DNA from: Nitrospinota bacterium
GTDB lineage: Bacteria > Nitrospinota > Nitrospinia > JACRGO01
Direction: 5' to 3'
Assembly: GCA_016212295.1 (NCBI GenBank)
Contig: JACRGO010000237.1
Coordinates: 215-64,214 of the forward strand
DNA length: 64,000 nt
Positions 19,727-64,000 of this stretch are shown piece after piece. A model generated the notes under the pieces. That model had not been told where the DNA came from, did not search any database, and saw nothing but the letters and a program-made list of their open reading frames with translations. Positions within the stretch are counted from its first letter, which is position 1; each line of letters begins with the position of its first letter. The translations under genes were made by a program, and so were the position numbers.

Positions 19727-21365
<1,639 letters not shown>

Positions 21366-21378
21366 TTTCTTTATGATA

Positions 21379-22412: not shown

Positions 22413-22434
22413 TTTTTTACTCCTAAAAAATTTT

Positions 22435-22716: not shown

Positions 22717-22879
22717 TAAAATTCGACCTTTATACTAGAATTTTCATGGGAAGTCAAATGGAAGGATAAAAGAAAACGAGGGAAAAACCCCTAAATATAT
22801 GTTTTAAAAAATATTTCCAGGCTTGGATTTATTTTAGTTTTTTTTTGTTGATTCTGAAAAATTTGTTATAATAAAAAAA

Positions 22880-23299
22880 ATGGCCATCATAACATCAATC
22901 ATAAACATTTCCACTCGTGGAATGTGCGATGTCCATGACATCACGCCCCAGGTTGATAAAATTTTGCGGGATGCCGGTCTTGATTCCGGAATTATTTGCG
23001 TCTTCGTTCCTGGCTCCACGGCAGGAATCACGAGCATTGAATATGAGCCGGGCATGGTGAACGATCTGAAAAAGGCCATTGAGAGGCTGGCGCCGTCTGA
23101 TATGCCATACGACCACGACGCAAGATGGGGCGACGGAAACGGATTTTCACACGTGAGGGCCTCCTTGATGGGCGCATCCTTTTCCATCCCTTTCTCCGGC
23201 AAAAAGATGCTTTTGGGGACGTGGCAGCAGGTGGTCCTGGTGGACTTCGATAACCGGCCTAGAAGGCGGGAAGTGGTGATACAGGTACATGGAGAATAA
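22880..23299 (+). CDS. YjbQ/UPF0047 family protein (secondary thiamine-phosphate synthase-like)
   Basis: 139 aa with the 'HVRASLMGASFSIPFSGKKMLLGTWQQVVLVDFDNRPRRR' signature of the YjbQ family. Confidence 0.8.
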   Translation: MAIITSIINISTRGMCDVHDITPQVDKILRDAGLDSGIICVFVPGSTAGITSIEYEPGMVNDLKKAIERLAPSDMPYDHDARWGDGNGFSHVRASLMGASFSIPFSGKKMLLGTWQQVVLVDFDNRPRRREVVIQVHGE

Positions 23300-23483
23300 T
23301 CAGGAAATTCACCAAAAGAAAAAATTCATCGGCATTCAATTCGAATGCTGCAACGTGTACCGCCGGATTTATGTGAACAAGGACAACACCGCTTATGCCG
23401 GCAATTGTCCAAAGTGCTTTCGGAAGGTATCGATCAGGATAGGAGAAGGCGGGACCAGCAACCGTTTTTTCAAGGCTATTTAA
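23289..23483 (+). CDS. small CxxC...CxxC zinc-ribbon-like hypothetical protein
   Basis: 64 aa with 'ECCNVY...NCPKCF'. It overlaps the yjbQ stop and lies directly upstream of lysC. It could equally be a non-coding leader. Confidence 0.25.
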   Translation: MENNQEIHQKKKFIGIQFECCNVYRRIYVNKDNTAYAGNCPKCFRKVSIRIGEGGTSNRFFKAI

Positions 23484-23493
23484 ACATTTCGAG

Positions 23494-24738: not shown

Positions 24739-24916
24739 GGGACTTGGAATTTAACAATAAACCAGGACACGAAGAGAAAAGATTCATTTCTTTCCGCGAG
24801 GAGTGATTCCCTGTAGTCATTAAGTTTTCCTTCGTGATCTTTGCGCCTTTGTGTGAGACCATATTTTTAATGGGTCTTATTCGTGTGTTTCGTGAATTTC
24901 GTGTTTAAGGATTTTA

Positions 24917-25187
24917 AATATCTGGGGTATGCACTTAACTTGAGTAGGTGCCATATATTGTGGGTGACGATGAAAAATATCGGACTTTATCCGAACTCTG
25001 ATTTTCATGGGCGTAAAGCGCATTTTAAACCCCTCAAAGCAGCAACTGGTTGTTTTTTTCTGCGAAACCCAAGAATAAAGCATGTAAATTTAAAAAAAAT
25101 TCAATGAAACCTGCGTGGAAGCTTTAGAATAAGAAACACCACATATTGTGTTTACTCAAATCAAGTGCATACCCCAGTTAAATATTT
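24917..25187. mobile_element. MITE-like element with roughly 50-bp imperfect terminal inverted repeats
   Basis: The left arm 'aaatatctggggtatgcacttaacttgagta...' (24917-24968) is the reverse complement of the right arm '...tactcaaatcaagtgcataccccagttaaatattt' (25139-25187) at about 80 % identity. There is no coding capacity. Confidence 0.6.
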
Positions 25188-25559
25188 TGAAATGAAATAA
25201 CTTTTTCTCTCGTTCCCAGGACTCGCTATGATAAAAGGCTTTGGACGGAAGTTTTTCAAAGATCTAAAATGTTGCGAATTTTTGTATTTTACCTTCCCTG
25301 GTTCTCAATAACTTGACGACCTGAACTTATCGCCCTTCTGCGGGCTTTAAAGAATTGAGCAGCGAACATCCTACCAATATCGTTCAAGCCCTGTAAAGGC
25401 GATACAATGAAGGGCAGAGAGCTTTCCCCTTTATATGGCATATTAGTATTTAGAAAAATATAATGATAATAAGCAGATATGCCAATAATCATTCGTGGGT
25501 ATTTGCGTGTATTGACCAAACCAAAACTTTGTGCTAGCATTTTCTAACTGTCTAATAAC

Positions 25560-26200
25560 TTGGAGGAGAGTACTCACATGTCCAAGAAAGATATTCGCAA
25601 GTTTTGCGATAATTACAAGAGGCTTGAAAATAACGGGACATATCGATGGAAGATTCTCGACGAGACGCTACTTGGAATATGTGACGCATACCCTTCCCAT
25701 ACGTCTGCTGACGAAGTCTTTTCTAAGGTCGCCCTCATAAATCGCAGCTATCGCGCTAACCTACACTTCACAGGTAAAGATACTGAGGAAAAAATTGCGA
25801 AGGCATTTGTGAAAAAGGGCCTCGACAAAGTGCTTGCCCCCTAAATAGCATAACTGCATTAACAGCCGAAAGCCTGCCCACGTTGGTAAGAGCACATGGC
25901 AGTGTTGTCAGTATTGTGAAAGATGTCACAAGTCGGATTCACAACTCCTTCGCATCAAAGTATCTTCACTTTCATTTTCCGCGCGTCGTTCCCATATTTG
26001 ATAAATTCGCTTACAATGAATCATGGCGACTGGCTCCAGTGCCGAAAAACGAGTGGCAAAGGTGGAGCAATTTAATAAACTATAATTACGGAACTCATTG
26101 TACATCTGTAGTCGCCTTACTCACTGAGCTAAAGGCTAATGGGGTCAATTCGCCGAACATCAAATTGATAGATATACTGCTCTATGAAGGGATTGGCTAA
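25560..26200 (+). CDS. hypothetical protein(s) in AT-rich islet, two ORFs possibly one frameshifted gene
   Basis: ORFs 25560..25844 (94 aa) and 25883..26200 (105 aa, TTG start) are in different frames. The second frame stays open upstream across the junction, which is compatible with a single roughly 210-aa product broken by a frameshift. No recognisable family. Confidence 0.3.
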
Positions 26201-26360
26201 CCAGTTGACCCTTCGGTTCCTCCGCACTGTTTCGCTTCGTCGCCGAAGGTGGCTTGCGAACCAGGCGTTAGAAACAGGCCGCCAGCCGGGCTGTCAAGCC
26301 TGCGGCTTGACGCCCGCTTGTCGGCGGCTCAACGCCGCATTAAGTGTTTTGGAGCCGTCA
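26184..26360 (+). other. GC-rich, hairpin-dense leader element upstream of the DUF3800-like gene
   Basis: About 65 % GC in a roughly 35 % GC context. Nested stems include ccttcgg...ccgaagg and gtcaagcc-tgc-ggcttgac. The ORF-track translation here reads as nonsense. Confidence 0.4.
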
Positions 26361-27269
26361 ATGAATCAAGTTATTTTTGTTATGGACGAATCGGGGGCAA
26401 AGGGCTACTCCGACAACATTGAAAGCACGCCAGGTGAGCTTGGTGTAATGGCTGGCTATCTCATTCCAATCGACTGTTTGAGTTTGGTTAAAAGTGAGTT
26501 AGATGCAATTCGATCAAATTTTTTTTCAGAAGGAAAAATTCACATTACAGACTTGCTCCCGCAGCAGGAAGAATTACGAAAAAACATATTTGATTACTTC
26601 CTCCAAAGGAAAATATATTGGGTTTACGAAGCCGCCTATGTCCAAGGTTATTTTGAAAATGCCGATTTTCTTAATCAGCTAAACAAGAAAGCCCATGACT
26701 CAAGACGATCAAATATACAAGTGTCATGGAAGGAAACAAAAGAGCTTCTTCATTCCGAGCTATTTCAAGGAGCCTTCGGGAAGGCTTTAGCATTTTGCCT
26801 AGATTACGTAGGTAGACCATTCGAGCTCAGAGTCATTACCGACCGAACGGATAACTCAATCATTAAAAAATTTCAGAGCGAAGCCGACGCCCTCCTATCT
26901 GTGGGAAAAGAAAAAATCCACGAAACTACGGGCTTCAATAAAAAAACGAAGCAGATTGTAAGGGGAAGCATTGCAACAAAGGTTTCTGCTGACACAGATG
27001 CAATCGGAGATTTTTCTGGCATTACATATTCCATTGCTTGCGAAGACTCTTCTCTTACCCTTGCCGCCGATGTGCTAGTAAACAGCGCCCATTATCACCT
27101 TAAATTACTGCAATCAGAGAGTACTGGAGTTGCTCTCAATGTTGCATCCTCAATCTCTAATCACCAACTGAGTAGCTTGGTGTACGGGGCATGGGACAAT
27201 ACGGAAGGAAATTATTTTGCTGATGCCATATTTATGCACCCCACGCAAAAGAGCAGAGACAACACCTAA
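26361..27269 (+). CDS. DUF3800-like protein
   Basis: A likely true start ATG at 26361 has GGAG 10 nt upstream. The N-terminus 'MNQVIFVMDESGAKGY' matches the hallmark 'iYiDESG' motif of DUF3800 proteins. The gene is AT-rich. Confidence 0.5.
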   Translation: MNQVIFVMDESGAKGYSDNIESTPGELGVMAGYLIPIDCLSLVKSELDAIRSNFFSEGKIHITDLLPQQEELRKNIFDYFLQRKIYWVYEAAYVQGYFENADFLNQLNKKAHDSRRSNIQVSWKETKELLHSELFQGAFGKALAFCLDYVGRPFELRVITDRTDNSIIKKFQSEADALLSVGKEKIHETTGFNKKTKQIVRGSIATKVSADTDAIGDFSGITYSIACEDSSLTLAADVLVNSAHYHLKLLQSESTGVALNVASSISNHQLSSLVYGAWDNTEGNYFADAIFMHPTQKSRDNT

Positions 27270-28128: not shown

Positions 28129-28340
28129 ACCGCCAACAAATCGCTCAACACCGGTGCCCATTACGCTCCGCTTCATTCGCACGGGTTAGCCAATCAGTTA
28201 TTTTCTGCCGCCCACTTTGGGGCTTAAATCTTTTTATTCCAGTTCCGGGGGCTGACGCCCCCGGCTATACGCTTTCGGCCCTCCGGGCCTAAAAAACATG
28301 CTGGAACAGCCTCACTGACTTATGGGTCAATAGGCATTTT

Positions 28341-39159: not shown

Positions 39160-40599
39160 ATGAACATCAAAAAACTCACGGACTACAAATGGGAGATCGA
39201 GCAGGACGCGGCCAGGGGAATGCGCGTCCCCGGCATCATTTACGCTGACGATAATCTCATGCGGTTGATAGAGAAGGACAACTCCGCCGGGCAGGTGGCG
39301 AACGGCGCGACCTTGCCGGGAATAGTAAAGGGCTCAATGGCCATGCCGGACATGCACTTCGGTTACGGTCTCCCCATCGGAGGGGTCGTTGCCACGCGCA
39401 TGGAGGACGGCGTCGTGTCGCCCGGCGGCACTGGATACGACATCAATTGCGGTGTCAGGCTCTTGAGGACCAATCTGAATTCGCAAGAGGTGGAAGCCTC
39501 GGCCTTGCTTCTCGCCAATGAACTCTTTCAAAGCATACCAACAGGCGTCGGGTCCAGGGGAGACATACGCCTTTCCGGAAGGGATTACAGAGACGTGCTT
39601 ATTAACGGCGCGAGATGGGCGGTGGAAAGAGGTTACGGCGCGGTCGAGGACATCGGGCATATAGAGGCCCAGGGCCGCATGGAGGGGGCAGACCCCGCCT
39701 CAGTCGGACAAAAGGCAATGGACAGGGGCAAGGACCAGTTGGGCACCCTGGGGTCTGGAAACCATTTCCTGGAAGTGCAGGTGGTGGAGGAAATTTTTTT
39801 TCCAAAGGCGGCGGCCGCCTTTGGACTCTTCCCCGGCCAGGTCACGGTCATGATCCACACCGGCTCCAGGGGATTCGGACACCAGGTCTGCACTGATTAT
39901 TTACAGGAGATGGAGAAGGCCGTCAGGAAGTACGGTATCGAACTCCCGGACCGGCAGCTGGCCTGCGCACCCATCCAATCCCCGGAAGGAAAAAGCTATC
40001 TCTCCGCCATGAGGGCCGCCGCCAATTACGCCTGGGCCAACAGGCAATGCCTGGCCGGACTGACGGAAAGGGCCTTTGAGCGGATTTTACAAATGGGGCC
40101 TGCCGCCCTGGGCATGTCCTGCCTGTACGACGTGGCCCATAATATAGTCAAGATCGAGGAACATATAATCGGCGGAAAAAAGATGAGACTTGCGGTCCAC
40201 CGGAAAGGCGCCACAAGGTCCTTTCCGCCCCATCACCCGGAAGTCCCGGAGTCATGCAAGGAAGTGGGCCAGCCGGTTATCATTCCCGGCGACATGGGAA
40301 GGGCCTCATACGTTCTGGTCGGGACCCAGAAGGCGATGGAGGAAACCTTCGGCAGCACCTGCCACGGCGCCGGGCGCCTCCTGAGCCGGCACGCGGCCAT
40401 CAGGCAGACAAAGGGAAGGGCAATTGAAAGAGAGCTTGGGGACAAGGGCATCATCGTGAGGTCAGCCGGAAGACACACACTGAAGGAAGAGGCCCCTGAA
40501 GCCTACAAAAACGTCACCGAGGTGGTGAACGTCGTGGAAAAGGCCGGGCTCTCCCTCAAGGTCGCGCGGCTGAGGCCGATAATAGTGATAAAGGGATAA
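39160..40599 (+). CDS. rtcB: RNA-splicing ligase RtcB
   Basis: 479 aa with the conserved metal-binding and active-site motifs 'GSGNHFLEVQ', 'HTGSRGFGHQ' and 'CHGAGR'. Confidence 0.9.
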   Translation: MNIKKLTDYKWEIEQDAARGMRVPGIIYADDNLMRLIEKDNSAGQVANGATLPGIVKGSMAMPDMHFGYGLPIGGVVATRMEDGVVSPGGTGYDINCGVRLLRTNLNSQEVEASALLLANELFQSIPTGVGSRGDIRLSGRDYRDVLINGARWAVERGYGAVEDIGHIEAQGRMEGADPASVGQKAMDRGKDQLGTLGSGNHFLEVQVVEEIFFPKAAAAFGLFPGQVTVMIHTGSRGFGHQVCTDYLQEMEKAVRKYGIELPDRQLACAPIQSPEGKSYLSAMRAAANYAWANRQCLAGLTERAFERILQMGPAALGMSCLYDVAHNIVKIEEHIIGGKKMRLAVHRKGATRSFPPHHPEVPESCKEVGQPVIIPGDMGRASYVLVGTQKAMEETFGSTCHGAGRLLSRHAAIRQTKGRAIERELGDKGIIVRSAGRHTLKEEAPEAYKNVTEVVNVVEKAGLSLKVARLRPIIVIKG

Positions 40600-40616: not shown

Positions 40617-41015
40617 ATGAGCATTGACATTGAAAGCATGATTATGACTGTGCTTATCTTTATCGCGGCTCTTTTGTATTCATCCGTTGGCCATGCCGGA
40701 GCTTCCGGCTACATTGCCGCTATGGCGCTAACTGGCTTATCACCTGCCGTCATGAAGCCCGCGGCCTTAGCCTTAAACATCCTTGTAGCCTTTATCGCCA
40801 CATTCAAATTTTACCGCGTAGGCGCTTTTTCATGGGATCTCTTTTGGCCGCTTGCGCTTGCTTCTATACCGTGCGCCGACAGGGGGGCTTCTTACATTGC
40901 CTACCCGTATATACAAACCAATTATTGGGCTTGTGCTCATTACGGAAGCGCAAACGCGGCGCGTTGTCTGCTTTTGTGGTCTTGGGGGCGTATAGGGGCG
41001 TGTTTTGAATTGTGA
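40617..41015 (+). pseudogene. TSUP (TauE/SafE) family transporter, truncated and frameshifted
   Basis: The N-terminus 'SSVGHAGASGYIAAMALTGLSP' is the TSUP signature. After a G6 homopolymer at about 40870 the conserved continuation ('GGLLTLPTRIYKPIIGLVL') is in another frame. The total is about 130 aa against about 250 aa expected. Confidence 0.5.
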
Positions 41016-41030
41016 TTATAATCCCTGCAA

Positions 41031-41457
41031 ATGGAAATAAAAAATCCTTATATAAAGATATTTCAAGACCTTCAAGCCAAGAATATAAAATACCTGGTTG
41101 TTGGAGAATTGGGCCTTACGAAAGACTTTGACCAATTGTATTCAAGGGGATTAAAACAAGAAGCAGGAAAAAATTCCTTGTATTTCATCGGCAAGGAGTA
41201 TCTTATAGATATGAAGGCAAAGGCCGGGAACGCCGTCTGGCTGGACAAAATCAAGGAAAAGTTCGCCGGTGAAAAAGAATAATAAAAAAGAAATGCAGGA
41301 AGCTTGGATGGATTCCGCCCTGGATATGGATGCGTTCAGGTCGTGGGACATAGAGAAGCAATTGGACGCCATAGTGGAATTCGCAAAAACCCGGTATTCC
41401 CTGGAAAAAGAGTTTTCATTCAAACAGTTGAAAAAACGCCGTGTAAAAAAAGATTGA
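41031..41457 (+). CDS. two small AT-rich hypothetical ORFs (83 and 62 aa)
   Basis: ORFs 41031..41282 and 41269..41457 have no recognisable domains. They are AT-rich, unlike their flanks. Confidence 0.25.
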
Positions 41458-41616
41458 CGAAATTTGAAGCGCCAAATAACAAACATCAAATCACAAATAA
41501 GCTCCAAAAGCAAAATTCCAATAACAATCCTTGATTATTGAAATTTTGAGTTTATTTGAAATTTGTAGTTTGAAATTTGAAATTTTTGGTTTCTTGCATT
41601 AAGCTCAGGAGCTCCC

Positions 41617-43434: not shown

Positions 43435-43740
43435 AAAAGGCTTCTTTCAAACTCCTTAACCACGAAGAACGCGAAGGACACGAATGCCATAAAGATTGCG
43501 CCCCGGAGGGGTGGCTGCCAGGGGAAGACCATGCCATAAGATGCCCAGGTCTCCATCAGCACATCGTCTTCGGAAACGAAAACCCGGTTGCGACCCCTCC
43601 AGGGTCGGATTAATTAATTTTTCAGATACCAGGGGTATCGGCCTGTGGCTTCAACCCCTGGCTAATGGCTGGCATCCCTCCGGGATGCATAATATCGCCC
43701 AATTTAGGTAATAAATAAAAAATCGCTATGCTATATGTTA

Positions 43741-44535
43741 TTAAAAAACCAGCCTTAACTCCAAAACGCCGGTCCGCTTGTCTATCATGTATTCCCTTTC
43801 AGGAGCAAAATTTTCCGGGGCCAAATCCAGGACCTCCTGCCGCGTCCGGCATTTTCCCCCATCCGTCCCCAGAAACATGTTTATATCAAAGAGAAAATTA
43901 TAGGGATCATCCCAGGGGTCCACGAAGTGCTCTATGATGGCCAGACGCCCCTTTTCCGTGAGCGCCCCGGCGGCCTTGTTAAAAAAAAGCCTTACTGAAT
44001 CGTCGCCGTACATGTGGATCACCTGTGATATCAGGATGAAATCAAAATTTTCCCCCCAGGGAAGGTCCCGGAAATCGCCTGCTATGATTTCTCCCTGGAG
44101 TCCCTTTTCCCTTGCCAGGGCAGCGGCACTTTCAATGTCCATGTAGGTTGCTGCGATATCGGGAAATTTTTTTTGTATTCCTCTCAAATAAGGGGCCGTG
44201 CCTCCTCCCACGTCGAGCAGACGGCGGACCCCGGCCAGGTCGACCAGTTCCAGAAACGTATTAAGGGAAAATCCGGCCTTTTCCTCCTGCGCCTCCATGT
44301 AGATACGGTAGTCCTCCTCGGTTCCGTGAGGGACCTCGCGCTTATCAGGCAGTCCCTTCCAGTGCTCCGCCATCCGCTCCATCTGCCTGGCCATGTGGGG
44401 CGCTTTGATTTCCTGGGGATAAATCCGGTCCAGCGCCTTTTGAATCCTTGGGGGAAGGGGGCCGTTTTTCACCGAGGCGATCAGCAGCCTGGTCTTCCAT
44501 GCGCCGGTGAGGACGTCAAAAAATAGTTCTTCCAT
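43741..44535 (-). CDS. class I SAM-dependent methyltransferase
   Basis: 264 aa with motif I 'LLDVGGGTAPY' and the overall O-methyltransferase-like layout. Confidence 0.7.
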   Translation of the reverse strand: MEELFFDVLTGAWKTRLLIASVKNGPLPPRIQKALDRIYPQEIKAPHMARQMERMAEHWKGLPDKREVPHGTEEDYRIYMEAQEEKAGFSLNTFLELVDLAGVRRLLDVGGGTAPYLRGIQKKFPDIAATYMDIESAAALAREKGLQGEIIAGDFRDLPWGENFDFILISQVIHMYGDDSVRLFFNKAAGALTEKGRLAIIEHFVDPWDDPYNFLFDINMFLGTDGGKCRTRQEVLDLAPENFAPEREYMIDKRTGVLELRLVF

Positions 44536-44746
44536 TTTTCACTAACCCGGACAAGCCGGAACTAAAATAAAATTCCGATGTATTCAAACATTTGATGATA
44601 CCTCTTTTGGACCGCCGATTCCATGCCGCGCCATGGAACCCCGGCGCAGGATTGTGCCCCCGCAGGAAGAGGTCTGGAGGTTGATATTTTACTTCACAAT
44701 TTTTTTCACATTTTTAAAAATTGAGCAGAAGTGGTTTCGCAACCCA

Positions 44747-44791
44747 GGTCGGCGCGAAAGGATTTGAACCTCCGCCCCACCTGCTCCCAAG
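44747..44791 (-). tRNA. tRNA-Pro(TGG)-like 3' half fragment (anticodon loop to 3' end), a probable integration-site remnant
   Basis: The minus strand reads 'CTTGGGAGCAGGTGGGGCGGAGGTTCAAATCCTTTCGCGCCGACC'. This has a T-arm GGTTCAAATCC, an acceptor 3' strand and an anticodon loop CTTGGGA. No matching 5' half is present upstream. Confidence 0.5.
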
Positions 44792-45437
44792 GATATGGGG
44801 ATGAAAGGGTCATTGACAACTATCGTTACGAGGTATATTTTATATTCACTTGTTGCCGCGTTATTGGCTGGATAAATGCTGAAAGCCCGGCTCCTATAGA
44901 TTGGAAAATAGGATGGAGAATTAGAAAATGGGAGCCATCCTTCAATTTGAGTTGCTTCATTGGGAGGAAGAAATAAATGGCAATTAACAAAGCAATAGAA
45001 GAAATAAGAAAAACCCGTCATGAAATCTCTTCAAGGCACCATCACAACACTAAAGAATTATTGGAGCACTATAAACAACTGGAAAGCAAATATTCGGACA
45101 GGATTTGCGACCGGACAAGGGACAGCAAAATAATCCAGAGGACACTAAAAAGCAGCGCGGTTGATTAAGGAGCAAGCTTCGTAATCCTCAGCCGGTTCTC
45201 CTTCTCTTTCCTCGATGGCTTTCAGGTCGGATAAATATTCAAAAGTCCGTTGGGCCTAAAAACTTTGAAAATGAGCTGAAATAATTAAATCCTAAATTAT
45301 GCGGATTCGGCATAATGGTAAAACAGATTATGTTACATGGAAAATCATGGCGGACTTTAATGAATAAATGATTAACAAGCCTTGAAAGCAATAGAAGTGT
45401 TTCTGAATAAATAAACAAAGAGTATGCATAAAAATAA

Positions 45438-46055
45438 ATGTTCGCGCCGCCATTAGGCTTAAAGAATATGAACCGAATTTATCTATCAATATTAATAATA
45501 TGCTTCCTCCTTGGCACGTGTACACTTATAGCATTTGTCAAGGCTGGAGAGTCTATATCTGGGAATTTGTATCCAGAATTAATAGGCTTTTGTTTAGATG
45601 GAATATTCTTTGTAATTCTTTTTACTGTTTATGAGGGGCGAAGATTTAAAGTAGAATCAACAAAACAAAAGATTAAATTAAAGAAGAGTTTGCGAGATTT
45701 ACTCGCAATAATACTGCAATGGTCACAACCTATTAACAGCAAAATTCCTTTTAAAGAGATCATTTTAAATCCCGATAACCTCAAAGCAATTCAAAAGGAA
45801 TTAGAGTCAACAAGACGACTTGATGGAGTGCAGGCAGATTTTCTCAGAATACATGCTTTAGCAAGGATTCCTTCTATCCAAGCCGCAATTCCAGTATCTG
45901 CTACGATTGATGGAAGACATTTACAGTTATGGGACTTAATTTTAAACAATCTTCGGGCAATTGCTGAATCTACTAATGACGAAAATGCTTATGAAGCACT
46001 GTTAGATTTTATTAACTTTGTAATCAAATTTGATGAAGCTCAAGTGTCTGCCTAA
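45438..46055 (+). CDS. hypothetical membrane-anchored protein
   Basis: 205 aa. Two N-terminal TM helices are followed by a helical soluble domain. It is AT-rich and has no family match by eye. Confidence 0.35.
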   Translation: MFAPPLGLKNMNRIYLSILIICFLLGTCTLIAFVKAGESISGNLYPELIGFCLDGIFFVILFTVYEGRRFKVESTKQKIKLKKSLRDLLAIILQWSQPINSKIPFKEIILNPDNLKAIQKELESTRRLDGVQADFLRIHALARIPSIQAAIPVSATIDGRHLQLWDLILNNLRAIAESTNDENAYEALLDFINFVIKFDEAQVSA

Positions 46056-46212
46056 CAAAGAAACAGTTGCAGGAGTCAGACATTGATCTGGAACAAAAAT
46101 GGGCTTGCCTAACAACCGCCTCCACGGCAGACGCTTGACTGTCATGCGCCTTGCAAAGTTCCGCAAGCCTTACGCCAGCCTGCGCTTGTGAGGCGAGCGT
46201 TAGATTTCAAGG

Positions 46213-47067
46213 ATGCCAATGGCTATTCACTGGTCAGAATCCGAAGTCGAGGCAGCAGTTGAAGACTACTTCAACATGCTCCGCCAGGAGTTGACCGGTC
46301 GCAAATACAACAAGACCGAGCATCGCCGGGCATTAATGGAACATCTGAACAATCGGTCAGAAGGTTCGGTTGAACTGAAGCATCAAAATATCAGCGCCGT
46401 TCTGATCGAGATGGGTATTCCATACATTGACGGATACAAGCCACGTTCAAACTACCAGCGCACACTACTGCCCGCAGCGGTGTCTGATTTCCTCGCCAAT
46501 CACCCCGAGTTTCACGCGCTGTTCCAAGAGGACTCCGAGGTCGCGCCATCCATCCCATCGGTTGCGGATTTTCTCGCGGCGATGGAAGCTCCGCCAAGGC
46601 CGGAAAACAAGGGCAGCTCAACGATCGCGGAGACTCAAGCTATCTACAATCCCGCCGGTGTGAACTACCTGGAACGGGAGGCGCAAAATCATTCACTAGG
46701 AGACGCCGGGGAACAATTCGTCATCAATTTTGAGCGGGCCAGGTTAATCCACGCCGGGAAGGAATACCTCGCGGATCAAATTGAGCAAATATCAGTCTCG
46801 GTCGGCCCTTCCGCTGGGTTTGATATCCGGTCGTTTGAAGAAAACGGAACAGACCGCTTTATCGAGGCAAAAACCACGAAATACGGCAAGAGCACGCCAT
46901 TCTTCGTTACTCCCAACGAGTTGGATTTCTCACGGGAGAATGCAACCCGGTACTTTCTATACCGTGTCTTCAAGTTCCGCGCGGAACCACGCTTGTTCAC
47001 TTTGCATGGCTACTTGCAGGATCAGTGCATACTCCAGCCGTCGCAGTACTTGGCGAAGCCAGCGTGA
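46213..47067 (+). CDS. COG3183-N-terminal-domain plus DUF3883 (restriction-endonuclease-like) protein
   Basis: The N-terminus 'EAAVEDYFNMLRQELTGRKYNKTEHRRALMEHLNNRSEGSVELKHQNISAVLIEMGIPYIDGYKPRSNYQ' matches the non-catalytic N-domain of HNH-type predicted restriction enzymes. The C-terminal half 'GDAGEQFVINFE...GFDIRSFEENGTDRFIEAKTT...FFVTPNE...YFLYRVF' fits DUF3883. Confidence 0.55.
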   Translation: MPMAIHWSESEVEAAVEDYFNMLRQELTGRKYNKTEHRRALMEHLNNRSEGSVELKHQNISAVLIEMGIPYIDGYKPRSNYQRTLLPAAVSDFLANHPEFHALFQEDSEVAPSIPSVADFLAAMEAPPRPENKGSSTIAETQAIYNPAGVNYLEREAQNHSLGDAGEQFVINFERARLIHAGKEYLADQIEQISVSVGPSAGFDIRSFEENGTDRFIEAKTTKYGKSTPFFVTPNELDFSRENATRYFLYRVFKFRAEPRLFTLHGYLQDQCILQPSQYLAKPA

Positions 47068-47129
47068 AATCTGGCAATGCGTTGCAACTGGCGTATTGAC
47101 ACGATTTGATCTTTTTTATAACATGAAGG

Positions 47130-47714
47130 CGAAAATATATCCCCCCTGCTTCTTCGGAAGCAGGGCGCGAGGCCGGGGATGCCGATTTCGATACCCTCAT
47201 CGCCTGCGCCTTCAACTATGACGCCCATTCCTCGGAATTCGATAAACTGGGCCGGATTCCGGTGCTCAAGGCCAGGATGAACGCCGACCTGCACATGGCA
47301 GGCGACCTCAAGAACACCGGCAAGGGGAACCTTTTCGTCATCTTCGGAGAGCCGGACATTGACATCCTCGACGCCGGGGACGGGCAGGTGCGGGTGAAGA
47401 TCAACGGCGTGGATGTCTTTCATCCCAACACCGGAGAGATTCGCAGCGACGGCGCGGAGGGGATCGCCTGCTGGTTCATCGACACCGATTATAACGAAGA
47501 GAGCTTCTTTGTCCGCCACGCCTATTTTCTCGGGGCCAACGATCCCTACAAGTCCCTCAAAACCACCCTCAAGGCCGAGATCAACGAAGAAGCCTGGGGT
47601 ACCCTGAACAGCGACACCTCCCGCCCCTTCCGGAAACCAAAATCCGGTCGGATCGCGGTAAAGGTGATCAATCATCTGGGGGATGAGGTGATGAAGGTGT
47701 TTCGTCTGAAATGA
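47130..47714 (+). pseudogene. orphan C-terminal fragment of a DNA methyltransferase (type III Mod / type IIG-like)
   Basis: The frame opens right after an in-frame TGA with no start or N-terminal catalytic domain. The C-terminal 'EAWGTLNSDTSRPFRKPKSGRIAVKVINHLGDEVMKVF' resembles the conserved tail of adenine-specific Mod-type methyltransferases. It is GC-rich, unlike its neighbours. Confidence 0.4.
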
Positions 47715-47744
47715 TAGAATTTTGTATTTTAGAACATTGAAAGA

Positions 47745-49258
47745 GTGTTCACGGGAGTGTCTGCCATGCGCCTGACTATCGAACAGCTCCAAAGCATTAT
47801 GAACTCCACGGAAGGGGAGCATTTCGAATTCAAGGAAGCCAAAACCAAATTTCATTTTGAGAAGCTCCTTAAATATTGTGCTGCTTTAGCGAATGAGGGT
47901 GGTGGGGAAATGGTTCTCGGCGTTACCGACAAACGGCCAAGACATGTGGTTGGAACTCAGGTGTTTTCTCAACCGGAACGGACGAGAAGCGGGCTTATTG
48001 AAAAGCTGCGTTTAAATATCAATTTTGATGAAGTCCAGCATCAAAATGGGCGCGTCCTGATTTTTCACGTTCCCTCTCGCCCCGTCGGAATGCCGATCAA
48101 GGCGGAAGGCGTTTACTGGGAACGAAAAGCCGACAGCTTGGTTCCTATGTCTGAAAATCGGCTTCGTGAAATCTTCTCCGAGGCAGGGCATGACTTTTCA
48201 GCCCAGATATGTTCAGGCGCAACAATAGCTGATTTGATCCCGGCGGCCATTGAAGATTTCCGGAACCGGTGGCTTATCAAGTCAAACAATCCCGGTTTAT
48301 CCACGTTGAGCCATGAACAGCTTCTTTCCGACGCCGAAGCGGTTGTTGATGGTTATCTTACCTATGCCGCGTTGATCTTGTTCGGAACAAAACAAGCTCT
48401 GGGCAAGTGTTTAGCCCAATCCGAGGTGGTTTTTGAATATCGGTCTTCCGATGCCTCAGGTCCAGCCCAGCATCGAGAAGAATTTAGAGAAGGGTTTTTC
48501 AGTTATTATGAAAAATTATGGAAGTTGATTAATTTGCGTAATGATATCCAGCACTTTCAGTCAGGTTTATTCCTGCTGGATATCCCGACTTTTTCGGAAC
48601 GGCCAGTTCGAGAAGCTGTCTTAAACGCCGTCAGCCACCGGGATTATCAGCTCGGAGGCAGCATCTTTATTCGCCAATATCCAAGGAAGTTGGTGTTTGA
48701 GAATCCAGGCGGATTTCCGGTTGGCATAAATCTCGATAATATCCTTGATCGCCAGTCGCCGCGCAATCGCCGCATCGCGGATATTTTTGCAAAATGTGGT
48801 CTTGTGGAGCGTTCCGGTCAAGGCATGAACCTGATGTTTGAGCGAAGCATTCAGGAAAGCAAAGCAATACCTGATTTTTCCGGCACTGATCAGTACCAAG
48901 TGATATTGAAAATCGCCTTCAACCTCGATTACAGACACTAGTGTCAAAAGGCGTCATCGAGCGCTTTGGCCGTGGGCGCGGTGTTAAATACATTCTCAGC
49001 CGTCAATATTATCAGATGGTAGGGAGTAGGGGTGTATATACGAGAAAGAAGGGATTGGATCGTGAAACAAACAAGACCTTACTTTTGAAACATATCGTTG
49101 AAAATTCCGAAACCGGAAGCCGCCTCAAGGAACTGAGACAAGTGCTTCCTTCGTTATCAATGCCACAAGTGCAAACCCTGCTTAGAGAACTTAAATTAGA
49201 AAGAAAAATTCATAAAACTGGAGCTACACGAGCGGCTCTTTGGCATGCCAATCTTTAA
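47745..49258 (+). CDS. Schlafen/AlbA_2-domain ATPase-like protein (COG2865 family) split by a frameshift at 48941
   Basis: ORF 47745..48941 has an N-terminal AlbA_2-like 'EGEHFEFKEAKTKF...' and a HATPase_c_4-like middle. ORF 48941..49258 (GTG start overlapping the TAG) carries 'GVIERFGRGRGVKYIL' and a wHTH, which normally forms the C-terminus of the same polypeptide. Confidence 0.6.
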
Positions 49259-49384
49259 TAAATCTATTGCATCAGCAAAAAAATCTAATTGCAATCCAAA
49301 TGCAATATAATACCCCAAGGTCTTTAATTACAAATAGTTAATATATATCGCTATTTAATTTGATATATAAAATTATGCAATAAA

Positions 49385-51457
49385 ATGGAATTTCGAATAG
49401 CCGATACCTTTACCGACAGCCTTTCCAAACTTAACGGAGAGGAACAGAAGGCCGTCAAGACCACCGCCTTCGACCTCCAGATGAATCCAGCCAATCCGGG
49501 GATGCAGTTTCATAAACTGGACAGGGCCAAGGACGCCAATTTCTGGTCAGTCCGTGTGAGCCGGGACATCCGATTAATTGTCCACAAAACAAAATCCAGC
49601 CTCCTGCTCTGCTATGTCGGGCACCATGATGACGCCTATCACTGGGCCGAACGGCGAAAACTGGAAACGCACCCGAAGACCGGCGCCGCGCAGATGGTTG
49701 AAGTTAGGGAGACCATAAAAGAAATCACCATCCCCAAATATGTTGAGGTTGAGCAACCCGTACCTTCCAAGCCCTCCCTGTTTTCGGATGTGTCCGACAA
49801 TGAACTCCTGAATTACGGTGTGCCGTCCGAGTGGTTGAACGATGTGCGGAAAGCCAATGAGGACAGCCTATTGGAACTGGCCGGCCACTTGCCAGGCGAG
49901 GCAGCCGAGGCGTTGCTCAATCTGGCCACCGGGGTGACGCCGCAAATCGCACAGCCGGGTTCCACTGAAGTTGATCCCTTTGACCATCCCGACGCCAAGC
50001 GGCGGTTCCGGGTGATGAACAATGTCGAGGAACTTGAACGTGCCCTGGAATATCCCTGGGAGAAATGGACTGTCTTTCTTCACGCCGCGCAACAGGAGTA
50101 TATAGAACAGGATTACACCGGCCCGGCAAGGATTTCCGGTTCCGCTGGCACTGGCAAGACTATTGTGGCCCTCCATCGAGCGGTTTTTCTTGTCCGTTCC
50201 AACCCTGAAGCCAGGGTGTTGCTCACCACATTCTCCGATACCTTGGCGAATGCACTGAGAACAAAATTGAGACGCCTGATCTGCAACGAACCGAGTCTGG
50301 GCGAACGTCTGGAAGTTTACGCCATGAATCAAATTGGCCTCAGACTCTATGAACTGAATTCTGGACGTCCACGGATCGCATCCCGAAAAGATATCAAGCA
50401 ATTTCTTGAAGAAGCCTCCATTCAAATAGAAGGACACAAGTTTACCCTGCATTTCCTGATGACGGAGTGGGAGGAGGTTGTTGACGCATGGCGGTTGGAA
50501 ACCTGGAAGGCGTACCGCGATGTTACGCGACTGGGAAGAAAAACGCGTCTGCCGGAGAAACAACGTGCCATGCTCTGGTCTATTTTTGAACGTGTGAGGT
50601 CCAATCTGAAGACCCGGAATCTTGTAACATACTCCGCCTTGTTCAGTCGTCTGACGTCTCAACTGGGTAAAAGCAAGCACCCGCCTTTTGATTTCGTCGT
50701 TGTGGACGAGGCACAAGATGTTAGTGTGGCTCAATTGCGGTTTCTGGCTGCCCTTGGGGCCAGACGAAAGGACAGCCTTTTTTTTACCGGAGACCTTGGG
50801 CAGAGGATTTTCCAGCAACCCTTCTCCTGGAAGGAACTTGGCATTGATATTCGCTGGCGTTCCCGCACACTGAGAATTAATTACCGCACCTCACACCAGA
50901 TCAGAATACAGGCTGATCGGTTGTTGGGACCTGAGTTGTCCGACGTGGACGGCAATGCAGAAGAACGGCGCGGTACAATTTCTGTTTTCAACGGGCAAAA
51001 TCCAACTATTATGATTTTAGATAGTCAGAAAGAAGAAATTAAAATGGCCGGCAAATGGATATCGGACCGTATAGGGGAAGGCTTAGCGCCAAGCGAGATA
51101 GGCGTTTTTGTCCGTTCCGAAGCGGAACTGGACAGGGCGCGGACCGCTGTTAAAAAAACGGGCTTGCCCTATAAGGTTCTCGACGAGAAGGTCGAAACAA
51201 CCGCCGGAAATATTTCCATCAGTACCATGCACCTTGCCAAGGGCCTGGAGTTCCGCGCCGTTGCTGTGATGGCCTGTGATGATGAGGTTCTTCCCTTGCA
51301 AGAAAGAATCGAATCCGTAGCGGATGATTCCGACCTGGAAGAGGTTTACAACACGGAACGTCATTTGCTTTACGTAGCCTGTACCCGGGCACGGGACTAT
51401 CTTCTTGTAACAAGTGTTGATCCGGCATCGGAATTCATTGATGATTTGAAGATGTGA
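49385..51457 (+). CDS. UvrD/Rep-like SF1 helicase with N-terminal RelE/ParE-like domain
   Basis: 690 aa. The N-terminal roughly 90 aa 'FWSVRVSRDIRLIVHKTKSSLLLCYVGHHDDAYHWAE' fits the RelE/ParE toxin-fold consensus. The rest has Walker A 'GSAGTGKT', a DEAQD box 'VVVDEAQDV' and C-terminal UvrD motifs 'ISTMHLAKGLEFRAVAVM...VACTRARDYL'. Confidence 0.7.
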   Translation: MEFRIADTFTDSLSKLNGEEQKAVKTTAFDLQMNPANPGMQFHKLDRAKDANFWSVRVSRDIRLIVHKTKSSLLLCYVGHHDDAYHWAERRKLETHPKTGAAQMVEVRETIKEITIPKYVEVEQPVPSKPSLFSDVSDNELLNYGVPSEWLNDVRKANEDSLLELAGHLPGEAAEALLNLATGVTPQIAQPGSTEVDPFDHPDAKRRFRVMNNVEELERALEYPWEKWTVFLHAAQQEYIEQDYTGPARISGSAGTGKTIVALHRAVFLVRSNPEARVLLTTFSDTLANALRTKLRRLICNEPSLGERLEVYAMNQIGLRLYELNSGRPRIASRKDIKQFLEEASIQIEGHKFTLHFLMTEWEEVVDAWRLETWKAYRDVTRLGRKTRLPEKQRAMLWSIFERVRSNLKTRNLVTYSALFSRLTSQLGKSKHPPFDFVVVDEAQDVSVAQLRFLAALGARRKDSLFFTGDLGQRIFQQPFSWKELGIDIRWRSRTLRINYRTSHQIRIQADRLLGPELSDVDGNAEERRGTISVFNGQNPTIMILDSQKEEIKMAGKWISDRIGEGLAPSEIGVFVRSEAELDRARTAVKKTGLPYKVLDEKVETTAGNISISTMHLAKGLEFRAVAVMACDDEVLPLQERIESVADDSDLEEVYNTERHLLYVACTRARDYLLVTSVDPASEFIDDLKM

Positions 51458-51575
51458 TCCGCAGGAATACCTTTAGATGCGCATAGAAGTGAGTAAGTCT
51501 TACATTTCCAAGGTCTTAACTGACTGTCCATAAAACCTTCCGAAAAAAGGTTTTGTAACCCATTGATTTAATGCA

Positions 51576-51773
51576 CTACCATAGAAAGGAGTTGCCCCTC
51601 GCCTTTTTTCTCTTGACCAGGAGGGTGTCCCTGGTGATGAGGACCCGGCCCTCCGCCAAGGCCAGCTCCACAAGCTCGCCGTCTTCCATGCCGGGGAAGC
51701 ATTCCACGTCGCAGCCCAGGATGCGCATCCACTTCGCCAACCGGCCCAGCATGCCGTCCACGAGGAATTTCAT
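51576..51773 (-). pseudogene. Mut7-C/DUF82 (PIN-like RNase) N-terminal fragment
   Basis: 65 aa. The 'MKFLVDGMLGRLAKWMRILGCDV' N-terminus is typical of Mut7-C proteins, but the zinc-ribbon C-terminal half is missing. The ORF stops about 120 bp from the helicase gene end. Confidence 0.45.
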
Positions 51774-51828
51774 GAACTCCCTCCCGTCCCTGTTCTTTCC
51801 TTTTCCGCCCCTGAATTTTTACCCTTTT

Positions 51829-52314
51829 TCATTCCAGAAGGACCAAGCCGAAGAATTGGGCGGTTTCAGGGTCATGGCTTAAATCGTACCCGAATTTTCT
51901 GACAGTGCCGAACACGTCAATGCCCATTGCTTCCATTGAGGGCCGCGCCTCCTCGGTCTTCACGCAAGGACGGTCATCCGGGCACTCCTCGCAGAGTCCG
52001 CATGGCCCTGACCCCATGCCGAATGCCTTGAAAAAACCCAGTTCCACGGCCTTTTTCTCTATCTCCGTTACCGCCCACCGTATCTTCCAGGATGCATGGT
52101 CGTGGATCAGCAGGGCGGTGTTGTATTCGGAAAAAATTTGCCTGGAGAAAAAGGGCGGGGGAGGAAATGGGGGGCAAGAGTACCTTTTACCGAACTCCCC
52201 GCACCCGTACCGGCACTTGAATAAAACCCAGGGCGCGGTTTGAATGTCCTTACTCTCAATGAGCAGGATTTCCTTGAGGTCCAGTTCTTTTTTCAAAGCC
52301 AGGAGATTTTTCAT
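51829..52314 (-). CDS. predicted metal-binding protein (DUF2284-like)
   Basis: 161 aa with Cys clusters 'CRYGCGEF...YSCPP' and 'CGLCEECP'. Confidence 0.45.
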   Translation of the reverse strand: MKNLLALKKELDLKEILLIESKDIQTAPWVLFKCRYGCGEFGKRYSCPPFPPPPFFSRQIFSEYNTALLIHDHASWKIRWAVTEIEKKAVELGFFKAFGMGSGPCGLCEECPDDRPCVKTEEARPSMEAMGIDVFGTVRKFGYDLSHDPETAQFFGLVLLE

Positions 52315-53578
52315 TTAATAAGCAGTCAAACAATTCATGAAGCTCCTCGGCCTTCTCATGCGATCCCTCAACGGGGCCGTCAATGTCCATGCCGCGGAAT
52401 TTATCGAAGACCCTTTGGGCCTCTACCTCCATTGTGGAATATATGCGTTGAATTTTTTTGTCGTGGAAGGGGTAATCGATAAAGTAAGGACTCCGCCCGT
52501 TCAGGTTGAGTTTTTGGACGTATCTTTTGTACATGGGCGTCCCGGCGTATAAAAAGACCTTGTGGGAAAGGAGCTGCGCCGCGTTGGTGGCGCAACGGAC
52601 CAGGCCGTTTCTCCGAAGGAACTTTAAATTTTCCCCTAATTCGGCCAGGGTCACCTCCGGATCGAACATGATGAACCCCGTGGAGAGTTTTATCCTTCTA
52701 TCCTGTATCAAGGCGATGGCCCTTTCATTCTGGTCCACCGTGGTCCTTTTATGAAAACGGTCCAAGGCGGATTGCGCGCCGGACTCAACCCCCAGAAAAA
52801 CTTCCGTGAGCCCTGCTTCCGCCAGGGGATCAATGGCGTCCGGCGAAACAGAATCGGCCCGGCATTCCAGTCCGAAGGGAATCCGGCGGCCTCTTTTCAT
52901 TATCTCCTTCGCCAATCCTGCGGCGTATATCCCTGCCTGCTTGCCTGGAGGAAAAAAGCAGGGATCAACAAAATATACCTTTTTAAATCCCTCCGCGACC
53001 CGTTGTTCCATCTCGTCCACTATGCCACGGGCGTCTCTCCCCTTGTAGCCATCGAAGAACCTCCCAGCGTAACAAAAGGTGCAATTTCCCCAGCAACCCT
53101 TGGACCCCAGCATAGGGGCGCATTCCCCTTTCTTTATCCTTGGGAAAGGGCCTGCGGTGCTCCCTTCTCCTAAAGGGTCCCCTTCAATGATGGAATCCAC
53201 GAAGGGAAATTCCCTCAGCAATTCATCCTTGAAAAAAGTCGGGTAGTAACCGAACAGGAAAAGCCTTGCCCTGGAAGAAGCCCTGATTTTCCGCAGGCTC
53301 TCCAGTATTTTCCCGGTGTTTTCCCATTGGAACAATAAATTCACATATATTTCTTCCGGTTTCATTTCGAGGAGGCGATTTTCAAAGGCGTCCAGGTCGC
53401 GCTCCCCGGAAGCGTCAAAATATCCGGCATCCAATCCCTGTTTTTTCAGCCTGGAGCAGGCGTATCCTGGCAAGAGACAAGAGGCAAGGGGGGCGTTGGA
53501 GACCACGTTGAAGTATCTCTGGGGCCGCAGGGCCGGGGGATCCACCACCACGGCGCGGGTTGATTTTAAGAACGGCAT
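52256..53578 (-). CDS. B12-binding-domain radical SAM protein
   Basis: 440 aa. It has an N-terminal cobalamin-binding-like domain and a 'CWGNCTFC' Cx3Cx2C radical SAM motif. Confidence 0.75.
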   Translation of the reverse strand: MPFLKSTRAVVVDPPALRPQRYFNVVSNAPLASCLLPGYACSRLKKQGLDAGYFDASGERDLDAFENRLLEMKPEEIYVNLLFQWENTGKILESLRKIRASSRARLFLFGYYPTFFKDELLREFPFVDSIIEGDPLGEGSTAGPFPRIKKGECAPMLGSKGCWGNCTFCYAGRFFDGYKGRDARGIVDEMEQRVAEGFKKVYFVDPCFFPPGKQAGIYAAGLAKEIMKRGRRIPFGLECRADSVSPDAIDPLAEAGLTEVFLGVESGAQSALDRFHKRTTVDQNERAIALIQDRRIKLSTGFIMFDPEVTLAELGENLKFLRRNGLVRCATNAAQLLSHKVFLYAGTPMYKRYVQKLNLNGRSPYFIDYPFHDKKIQRIYSTMEVEAQRVFDKFRGMDIDGPVEGSHEKAEELHELFDCLLNEKSPGFEKRTGPQGNPAH

Positions 53579-53882
53579 CTTTTTTGCTTAACAAAATAGA
53601 GGATAAAAATCAGCCACGAATGAACACGAAGTTTCACGAATTTTTAAAAATTTCTTTTAAATTAGCGCCCCTTAGTATTCATTCGCGGCTAAATAACATT
53701 TTTGTTCTATAATTTTTCCATACTTTTTAAAAAGGATAGACCGGATGTCGCCAACTTGTCAATTCTTGTTTTTATTATCGCGATACCTTTTTCACGTAAG
53801 GCCGTCTAATAATTTGTGGCTTTTTCTGGAAAAAAACATTATACTTAATAAAGAAAAACTAGCCTTAATTAAGGGGAAAAAA

Positions 53883-62628: not shown

Positions 62629-62838
62629 TATGGATATCCTCCGTTGTTGGGTTGTTTGAAAGCAGATAAATGACAAAAAAATATTCCTTGGCTGACACCT
62701 CCTTCCAAAAAATTTTGGTAACAATTCACGGCGCGGCCTTTGGCCGCAACCAAAGGGAAAACATGAGCCTCTCGATTCCCTCACGATTTTCTCACGATTT
62801 TAAAATAGTTTTTTAAATCGAGAAGTAATCATGAAGCT

Positions 62839-63185: not shown

Positions 63186-64000
63186 CTATTGGTCCTTCTT
63201 TTTTTGGCGTTTTTGGTGGTCTTTAAGTTGCCCGTTTTTTTGGGTTATATAATTTTTCTTGTCCTGGGATAGGGGGGCGGAGGCAAGCCAGGATTCCAAT
63301 GATTCAAAGGACCAGCCTGAAAAGAAATCCTCCTTGAGCGCGGCCTCCAGTTTTTGTCCCGCCTCTTTGACGTCTCGTCCCAGGGCGGCAAGGGCTACGC
63401 ATTGCAGATACAGGGCAATGGCCCGGTCTTTTCTTTCCCCGGCTATTTTCAGAGTTTTGGGAATAATGGCCAGGGCATTTTCATATTGATTCTGAATGAT
63501 ATAAAACTCGGTAAGGTTGTTGTAAGGCTTGGCGTCTTCCGGATGGAGTTCAATGGCCTTGTAAAAGTCCTGTATGGCCTTGTCATACTCCTTGAGATAT
63601 CTATAGGCGCTGCTCGTGTAGTCGCGAGCCGAGGCGTCTTTCGGATCGAGTTCAATGGCCTTGTCAAAGTCCCGTATGGCCTTGTCATACTCCTTGAGAT
63701 CGATATAGGCGTCTCCTCTGTTGCTGTAAGCCGAGGTGTCTTTCGGATTGAGTTTAATGGCCTCGCCATAGTCCCGTATGGCCTTGTCATACTCCTTGGA
63801 CAAGCGATAGGCATTTCCTCTGTTGTTGTAAACCGAGGCGTACTTTGGATCGAGTTCAATGGCCTTATCATAGTCCCGTATGGCCTTGTAGTACTCCGTG
63901 AGATTGCTATAGACGCTTCCTCTGTTGTTGTAAGCCGAGGCGTATTTTGGATCGAGTTCAATAGCTTTGCCGTAGTCCCGTATGGCCTCGTCATACCTCT
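63186..64000 (-). CDS. TPR-repeat protein (partial, continues beyond the window end) built from near-identical 102-bp tandem repeats
   Basis: 'YDKAIRDYGEAIKLNPKDTSAYSNRGDAYIDLKE' units repeat at least five times. The same frame stays open to position 64000. The overlapping ORF 63449..63994 in another frame is repeat-driven and spurious. Confidence 0.65.
   Translation of the reverse strand, partial: RYDEAIRDYGKAIELDPKYASAYNNRGSVYSNLTEYYKAIRDYDKAIELDPKYASVYNNRGNAYRLSKEYDKAIRDYGEAIKLNPKDTSAYSNRGDAYIDLKEYDKAIRDFDKAIELDPKDASARDYTSSAYRYLKEYDKAIQDFYKAIELHPEDAKPYNNLTEFYIIQNQYENALAIIPKTLKIAGERKDRAIALYLQCVALAALGRDVKEAGQKLEAALKEDFFSGWSFESLESWLASAPLSQDKKNYITQKNGQLKDHQKRQKKKDQ

Follow-up and report, generated by a model that had tools for sequence, protein, structure and literature searches.

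Does a tRNA-Pro half-gene that lies beside a block of AT-rich, defence-like genes mark the edge of a genomic island integrated at that tRNA? The question arises from a 64-kb stretch of a contig of a Nitrospinota metagenome-assembled genome (MAG); the whole stretch is called the window below. A preliminary description of it had placed an island of foreign defence-type DNA at positions 44747-51575, bounded on the left by a tRNA-Pro(TGG) 3′ half, taken as the direct repeat of a tRNA-targeting element, and on the right by a truncated Mut7-C gene. Foreign defence-type DNA in a variable site was indeed found there. Its edges, as given by presence and absence in relatives, fall at 45440/45441 and 51582/51583, and not at the tRNA fragment (44747-44791). 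We consider it quite probable that the locus is an ordinary, mostly eroded defence hotspot in a variable chromosomal slot, layered by unrelated mobile and defence DNA, the tRNA piece being an older scar.

A variable slot between conserved genes

Contigs of relatives were gathered by exact-protein and homologue look-ups, and all of them were short; runs SRR22388345, SRR22388174 and SRR22387960 are among their sources. Three belong to distant relatives (L022, L023 and L026, 64-68% protein identity) and one to an 80% relative (L025). L021 and L124 are closer, with DUF2284 proteins 96% and 83% identical to that of the window, respectively. L024, with an O-methyltransferase 89% identical, stems from the sequencing run that also yielded L021. 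L021 and L024 are separate short contigs without overlap, so that the slot of the relative is left unclosed between the two.

The whole variable slot (about 44601-51828) lies between two conserved genes. The left one encodes an O-methyltransferase (Pfam Methyltransf_2, 264 aa, 43741-44535, minus strand), whose orthologues are 64-89% identical and adjoin DUF2284 in the distant relatives. The right one encodes a DUF2284 metal-binding protein (51829-52314, minus strand), recognised by Pfam and by its orthologues in relatives; it is followed by a radical SAM gene (52256-53578), and the DNA on this side of Mut7-C (DUF2284, radical SAM, POTRA) is conserved chromosome. In L022, L023 and L026, DUF2284 is followed directly by the O-methyltransferase, without Mut7-C, tRNA or cargo. 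L024 matches the window at 90-95% over 43740-45440; homology ends at 45440, and the proteins encoded to the right of this point, of 179 aa in L024 and 205 aa in the window, are unrelated. On the other side, homology to L021 ends at 51583, inside codon ∼63 of Mut7-C, a gene that is intact in L021. Truncation of Mut7-C by foreign DNA, as had been proposed, is thus borne out, and the end given to the block was nearly right, the real breakpoint (51582/51583) lying 7 bp away from it. In L025, homology is lost left of about 44600, and other AT-rich DNA, without the tRNA piece, is found there.

Since the relatives carry differing DNA at this site, it is, as read from these alignments, a multi-allelic variable slot, of which a 6.1-kb cassette (45441-51582, defined by the ends of homology to L024 and L021) is strain-specific. 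The turn to AT-rich composition that had been noticed at the left of the block was recovered as well, with a GC content of 0.32-0.36 at 45.0-46.0 kb against about 0.49 window-wide. A separate observation concerns the relatives with an intact Mut7-C gene: L021 (4906-4969) and L124 (1188-1331) diverge from each other immediately after its stop codon, which means that the variable slot starts right there in this sub-lineage.

Because the source is a MAG contig, and because composition changes sharply at 45 kb, one may ask whether the junctions were produced by assembly or binning. We consider this extremely unlikely. Both junctions, as well as the frameshift described below in the Schlafen-like gene, are crossed at 100% identity by contigs L001 and L020 of a second assembly of run SRR12113407, which argues against an assembly artefact.

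The tRNA-Pro half and the older layer

The tRNA fragment announced in the preliminary description is real: it is a degenerate tRNA-Pro(UGG) 3′ half on the minus strand (44747-44792), an old relic common to a relative. It escapes a whole-window scan with ARAGORN and with Rfam at gathering thresholds, and is detected only if the sequence searched is trimmed at the fragment's 5′ end. With the stretch cut at 44792, a truncated Rfam tRNA match was obtained at 44749-44792 (minus strand, 18.5 bits, E 0.07, model positions 30-71 of 71). The anticodon loop reads CUUGGGA (UGG, G37) and the T-loop GGTTCAAATCC, and the fragment has G72 and A73, identity elements that we take to be the expectation for a bacterial tRNA-Pro. 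Over the final 27 nt, it departs at 2 positions from genuine tRNA-Pro genes of phage contigs. As for damage, the variable loop has one base too many, the T-stem contains two G-U pairs, CCT stands in place of CCA, and the 5′ half is absent.

L024 has its own copy of the fragment, which reads CCTTGAGAGCGGGTGTGGCGTAGGTTCAAATTCTTTCGCGCCGACC, with 5 changes over 46 nt and TGA at the anticodon. Over the fragment, the divergence between the window and L024 equals the rate of the surrounding non-coding DNA, as for a neutral sequence. Since the fragment and the 650 nt to its right are common to L024, where a different cargo follows, the fragment predates the cassette. Judged by this comparison, the tRNA half is outside the strain-specific cassette and older than it.

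Integration at a tRNA was examined in four ways, and all four came out negative: there was no target tRNA, no direct repeat, no integrase, and no edge at an att site. No intact tRNA was reported by ARAGORN in the 64 kb, nor by the Rfam scan at gathering thresholds. Neither half of the fragment recurred in the window with up to 3 mismatches allowed, and a repeat search returned neither a family linking the slot ends nor an att partner. An integrase, transposase or resolvase domain was found neither in the slot open reading frames (ORFs) nor in the tested neighbours at 32-63 kb, the scan having covered these rather than every ORF of the window. Together with the intact Mut7-C gene of the relatives, the lack of an att-like partner repeat and the older age of the fragment largely undo the idea that the fragment is the boundary, or the att repeat, of the island: it is shared with L024, whose cargo is unrelated, and has no partner repeat, tRNA or integrase to go with it.

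Two short matches came up in these searches and were set aside. The 9-mer TTCGCGCCG, corresponding to the 3′ strand of the fragment's acceptor stem, occurs in inverted orientation exactly at the left junction (45441-45449); it was judged a chance match because 36 such 9-mer matches are found in the window (∼16 expected), TTCGCGCCG itself occurring twice elsewhere. A 13-nt match resembling the T-loop, at 8517, lies inside an MptE-like coding gene and was also attributed to chance.

The block could nevertheless be a tRNA-Pro-targeting island, with 44747-44791 as its distal att repeat, and with the tRNA and the integrase either beyond the window or deleted together with the 3′ end of Mut7-C. The fragment does have the extent typical of an att core, from the anticodon loop to the 3′ end, and similar halves are found near provirus contig ends. 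Given its orientation, the element would extend rightwards, on the side of the foreign DNA, and the fragment abuts DNA with a promoter-like motif that is also present upstream of two other window genes. We nevertheless regard this explanation as improbable to a high degree. The fragment and 650 nt to its right, at neutral divergence, are common to a relative with a different cargo, the 64 kb hold no partner repeat, tRNA or integrase (within the limits of the domain scan), beyond Mut7-C on the right the chromosome is conserved, and the distant relatives have no tRNA at the site.

Where, then, would the fragment come from? In provirus contigs, tRNA-less tRNA-Pro (GGG) 3′ halves of the same extent occur at a distance of about 500 nt from the contig ends, so that the fragment looks like an att scar, old, the element of which has been lost. 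Most likely it would be the scar of a long-gone tRNA-targeting element, or else DNA imported with such a scar.

Another origin, without any integrative element, would be a resident tRNA-Pro gene between Mut7-C and the O-methyltransferase that has lost its 5′ half by deletion. The fragment is on the strand of the flanking genes, and deletions are common in the slot, PIN, Mut7-C and Mod (see below) being all truncated. Yet neither a tRNA nor a fragment is present in the three distant relatives and in the 80% relative, and a break at the anticodon loop is what an att core classically shows. Moreover, tRNA-Pro(UGG) is usually single-copy, and the loss of one would require a second copy elsewhere. 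We hold such a resident gene to be unlikely, and retain an old att scar as the likelier origin.

The rest of the shared DNA tells of another loss. In L024, a 163-aa PIN-like gene (Pfam PIN match) lies between the tRNA piece and a 63-aa gene. The window retains a 32-nt remnant of the PIN-like gene (44914-44945, plus strand; blastn alignment of L024 1396-1427 with window 44945-44914) and, as its orphan partner, the 63-aa gene (44977-45168, plus strand), the product of which is 89% identical to that of L024. A PIN-like gene with a gene of ∼63 aa directly after it is a conserved pair, found in 67 of 80 metagenome loci (L044-L123); a tRNA fragment stood beside the pair in none of the 80, and a PIN scan of viral contigs found nothing. 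At the other end of the slot, Mut7-C is truncated after about 63 codons, leaving a stub of 65 codons (51576-51773, minus strand) that matches positions 1-61 of 146 of the Pfam Mut7-C profile. The stub falls short of a full PIN-like domain with C-terminal zinc ribbon (∼146 profile positions), whereas the gene is intact at 151 aa, after DUF2284, in L021 and L124, the relatives covering profile positions 1-145. Mut7-C and PIN are thus destroyed genes.

From these data we infer an order of events. The older layer, common to relatives, would comprise Mut7-C, the PIN gene with its 63-aa module, and the tRNA-Pro 3′ half. The younger layer, restricted to this strain, would be the cassette 45441-51582, which would have taken the place of the 88 3′ codons of Mut7-C together with any sequence beyond them. 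The cassette ends show no visible repeats, which suggests that it probably arrived by illegitimate recombination rather than by site-specific integration. The locus carries a caution: a tRNA half beside AT-rich defence genes mimics the textbook edge of an island, and it took fragmentary relatives to reveal that the scar is older and that the edges are elsewhere.

A composite and decayed cassette

The gene content listed in the preliminary description was recovered: a membrane-anchored protein, a DUF3883 protein, a split Schlafen/AlbA_2 gene and a fusion of RelE-like and UvrD domains are all present, together with a methyltransferase fragment. The cassette is probably a composite of (a) the membrane protein and an intact PDC-S36 gene, and (b) the 3′ end of an operon encoding a restriction enzyme (Res), a methyltransferase (Mod) and a helicase, in which a frameshifted Schlafen/HATPase_c_4 gene would be embedded.

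The first part starts with a 205-aa protein (45438-46055, plus strand; the start may be the ATG at 45468) that has two N-terminal hydrophobic segments according to its hydropathy, and no match in Pfam, PADLOC or NCBIfam; more generally, NCBIfam gave no family-level name for any slot protein. It is followed by the one intact candidate that a PADLOC run, as had been advised, returned for the block: PDC-S36 (46213-47067, plus strand), a candidate defence protein whose C-terminal domain is of the DUF3883/NOV_C nuclease type. The match to the PADLOC profile (PDLC05008) is full-length, residues 3-283 aligning with positions 3-279 of 280 (E 2.9e-105), and Pfam detects NOV_C/DUF3883 with an E-value of 1.5e-19. 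Homologues were found in 1216 plasmid records, and a literature search under the name PDC-S36 returned no paper. As predicted from its domains, PDC-S36 would be a stand-alone nuclease triggered by its N-terminal domain. Together, perhaps, with the 205-aa membrane protein, it is probably the only plausible active defence here.

The second part starts with what had been taken for an orphan methyltransferase C-terminal fragment. The fragment is real, although the ORF listed for it was too short: it spans 47157-47714 (plus strand) and is what remains of the 3′ end of a Type III-like Mod methyltransferase gene, with the last ∼200 of 959 residues. PADLOC aligns it with positions 818-982 of 983 of its MTase_III profile (PDLC03632). 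It shares 75% identity with residues 757-958 of the 959-aa Mod of a Pseudomonas avellanae plasmid (NZ_CP091148, where the operon occupies 18967-27027), and is 91% and 88% identical to the Mod proteins of two metagenomic operons (L043 and L042, respectively), whose helicases are 74-78% identical to that of the window. Residues 1-756, including the catalytic N6_N4_Mtase region, are gone, and tblastn with the P. avellanae restriction enzyme as a query detected no homologue in the window. Because Mod has lost its catalytic part and the restriction enzyme is absent, the remnant should be able neither to methylate nor to restrict.

Complete versions of this operon indicate what the remnant came from. 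On plasmids of P. avellanae, Gemmobacter and Rhizobium, a BPTD_3080 family restriction endonuclease (about 1020 aa, NCBIfam NF046055, ResIII and RE_endonuc domains) is followed by Mod (about 960 aa, PADLOC MTase_III) and, in last position, by a homologue of the window helicase, annotated as a 3′-5′ exonuclease. Over six loci, the adjacent genes of Res-Mod-helicase operons are 75-91% identical to the Mod remnant and 62-78% identical to the helicase. Foreign genes inside BPTD_3080-type operons are common, and the embedded cargo varies. The operon of L042 (GCA_043826045.1, 1-11126) contains QatB-QatC-QatD and a toxin gene of the Gp49 family (HigB-like) that is followed by a small ORF, that of L043 (JGI 3300001567, 1244-10885) a DUF4062 and HATPase_c_4 protein, and those of L028 and L031 hypothetical genes. 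No paper was found in a literature search under the name BPTD_3080, and the Res-Mod-ArmD-like operon with embedded cargo seems undescribed under its NCBI name.

In the window, the gap between Mod and the helicase is occupied by a Schlafen-like gene (47745-49258, plus strand; Pfam SLFN_AlbA_2 and HATPase_c_4, COG2865-type), in the position of the embedded cargo of the related operons. It is split into ORFs of 398 aa (47745-48941) and 105 aa (48941-49258) by a frameshift near 48.9 kb; a Runella homologue spans residues 16-495 of the joined protein in one piece. An intact ORF with AlbA_2, HATPase_c_4 and a C-terminal winged helix is thus not preserved.

The last gene of the cassette (49385-51457, plus strand) encodes an intact ArmD-like helicase of 690 aa, in which a RelE-fold N-terminal domain precedes a UvrD/GajB-like superfamily 1 (SF1) core, as judged by Pfam, PADLOC and fold search. 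The family alignment shows that Walker A, DEAQD and HHDxAYxW motifs are retained, and a tblastn search of plasmids returned full-length homologues with up to 62% identity. At the sequence level, matches of the RelE domain stayed below threshold (Pfam HigB-like E 0.002-0.003; PDB profile match to RelE3, E 0.056), and the point was settled by structure prediction and fold search. The first ∼95 residues adopt a RelE/YoeB/YafQ-like fold in the AlphaFold model (pLDDT 88), with 2a6r, 2khe and 3g5o as top Foldseek matches (E about 1e-4 to 1e-5, probability 1.00, target-normalised TM 0.72-0.76). This agrees with the fusion initially proposed. R63, H81 and Y85 are invariant in eight diverse homologues of the helicase, and would correspond to the catalytic residues of YoeB. 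The N-terminal region is common to more than 4000 proteins, many of them named RelE by JGI. More distant homologues of the helicase come after giant DEAD/DEAH helicases on plasmids of E. coli and Thermus, or else after a RecB-like nuclease together with a DUF4011 protein. Helicases of the RelE-UvrD type are found repeatedly at the end of large defence operons of several kinds.

RelE-UvrD genes were often seen split or truncated, even on very long contigs, as in L043 and for proteins P0142, P0146 and P0189. In L043 (8812-10885) the gene is divided into 322 and 377 aa, and one of 261 aa occurs on a 1.8-Mb contig. This hints at frequent inactivation.

Could the cargo nonetheless be a working multi-gene defence system, made of PDC-S36, the Schlafen ATPase and the RelE-UvrD helicase? 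The genes are closely packed on one strand, the helicase and PDC-S36 are intact, and HATPase_c_4 proteins recur in related operons. Against this, the Schlafen gene is frameshifted and the Mod piece is a dead remnant. The nearest relatives of the helicase always end larger operons with a restriction enzyme or giant helicases, ARMADA, to which the helicase is compared below, needs all its partners, and homologues of PDC-S36 stand alone on more than 1000 plasmids. A working system of this kind is in our opinion very unlikely. The cargo is not one system, and is made up of known families: PDC-S36, Type III-like restriction-modification, an ArmD-like helicase, a COG2865-type ATPase and toxin-antitoxin remnants. 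The earlier impression that the combination corresponds to no named system therefore holds for the block as a whole, but not for its parts, since PDC-S36 is named by PADLOC, and the Mod tail with the helicase belongs to a recognisable operon type, the helicase having the ArmD architecture. Most of the patch is probably non-working, with one intact candidate gene among five truncated or frameshifted ones.

Several points weigh against the explanation as a layered and mostly eroded defence hotspot. L021 and L024 are assumed to come from a single genome, and the DNA in between is outside the comparison. A full-length empty or alternative site was not seen in any close relative, and the closest complete or representative genome in a scan of the genome collection, a Nitrospinia MAG 64% identical in the radical SAM protein, is non-syntenic, so that it provides no presence/absence test. 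Elsewhere in the MAG there could be an integrase and a complete tRNA-Pro gene sharing this 3′ half, the search having covered the 64-kb window. The Schlafen frameshift could in principle be a sequencing error common to both assemblies, which were made from the same reads. Finally, what PDC-S36, the 205-aa protein and the orphan helicase do is a matter of prediction.

A few observations were made elsewhere in the window. The motif CAC..TTTT.CAC..TTTTTAAAAAT is found at 44695-44722, 53625-53652 and 62782-62809, upstream of three minus-strand genes (the O-methyltransferase, the radical SAM gene and a 356-aa ORF), and may be a promoter or operator element. A TauE-like ORF (40617-41500), just downstream of an RtcB ligase gene (39160-40599), covers only positions 3-81 of 237 of its profile, and the GC content then dips to 0.38, possibly a further scar left by a truncation or an insertion. 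A full-length Acido-Lenti-1 RNA motif (RF01687) lies at 28245-28290 on the plus strand (49.3 bits, for a gathering score of 37), in a phylum outside both phyla behind the motif's name. Five to six tandem coding repeats of 102 nt, 79-85% identical, close the window on the right (63414-63996) and are probably part of a repeat-domain protein.

Comparison with known systems

PDC-S36 shares its C-terminal DUF3883 domain with the modification-dependent nucleases of the YenY4I/McaZI type, in which DUF3883 is the PD-(D/E)xK catalytic domain (PMC6765204). It differs from characterised DUF3883 enzymes by its N-terminal domain, which is not a PUA or DUF3427 reader, and PDC-S36 itself has the status of a PADLOC candidate only.

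For the helicase, the closest characterised counterpart in architecture is ArmD of ARMADA type II, which combines a RelE-like domain with a UvrD/GajB-like helicase (PMC12458937; bioRxiv 10.1101/2025.09.15.676423). ArmD is essential, and removing any one of the four genes of ARMADA type II abolishes defence (PMC12458937). The window helicase has this architecture and can be aligned over its full length, at 31% identity, with a homologue on an E. coli plasmid that follows a 2113-aa DEAD/DEAH helicase, a locus that is probably ARMADA type II. However, ArmA (BrxHII-like), ArmB (PglX-like methylase) and ArmC (YprA-like helicase) are absent from the ORFs of the slot and from the tested neighbours, and the nearest relatives of the window helicase are in Res-Mod operons and not in ARMADA. 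All motifs are retained in the helicase, which may be expressed; if ARMADA is a guide, it should depend on partners. Likeness to Gabija is limited to partial matches of the helicase core to the GajB profile: no GajA (OLD-family nuclease) was detected by PADLOC among the slot proteins, and GajB is without the N-terminal RelE domain.

The BPTD_3080 operons are matched in part. The Mod remnant and the helicase are their two last genes, in the same order and orientation, whereas the restriction enzyme and residues 1-756 of Mod, that is, the defining activities, are missing from the window. The more useful lead is the Res-Mod-helicase operon of the comparison loci, of which the window holds only the stump. 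One could go further and propose jointly that Res(BPTD_3080)-Mod-RelE/UvrD operons form an undescribed, ARMADA-related class of Type III-like systems that habitually embed Qat, HATPase_c_4 proteins and toxin-antitoxin pairs, and that the orphan ArmD-like helicase, possibly with its Schlafen-like neighbour, is still a self-sufficient RNA-cleaving and helicase effector. This double proposal is a long shot.

With tRNA-targeting elements the locus has in common a tRNA-Pro 3′ half of roughly 45 nt, starting at the anticodon loop; it departs from them in that this fragment is single, mutated, older than the cargo and off the strain-specific boundary. From known defence hotspots it differs in that no recombinase, att pair or carrier element (prophage, satellite or integron) is visible, and in that the relatives are known as short contigs. 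What it does share with them are the same flanking genes, a cargo of defence and toxin-antitoxin genes that varies between strains, a mosaic composition and many truncated genes, which makes it a compact example of the turnover and decay of defence DNA in the uncultured, marine-type phylum Nitrospinota.

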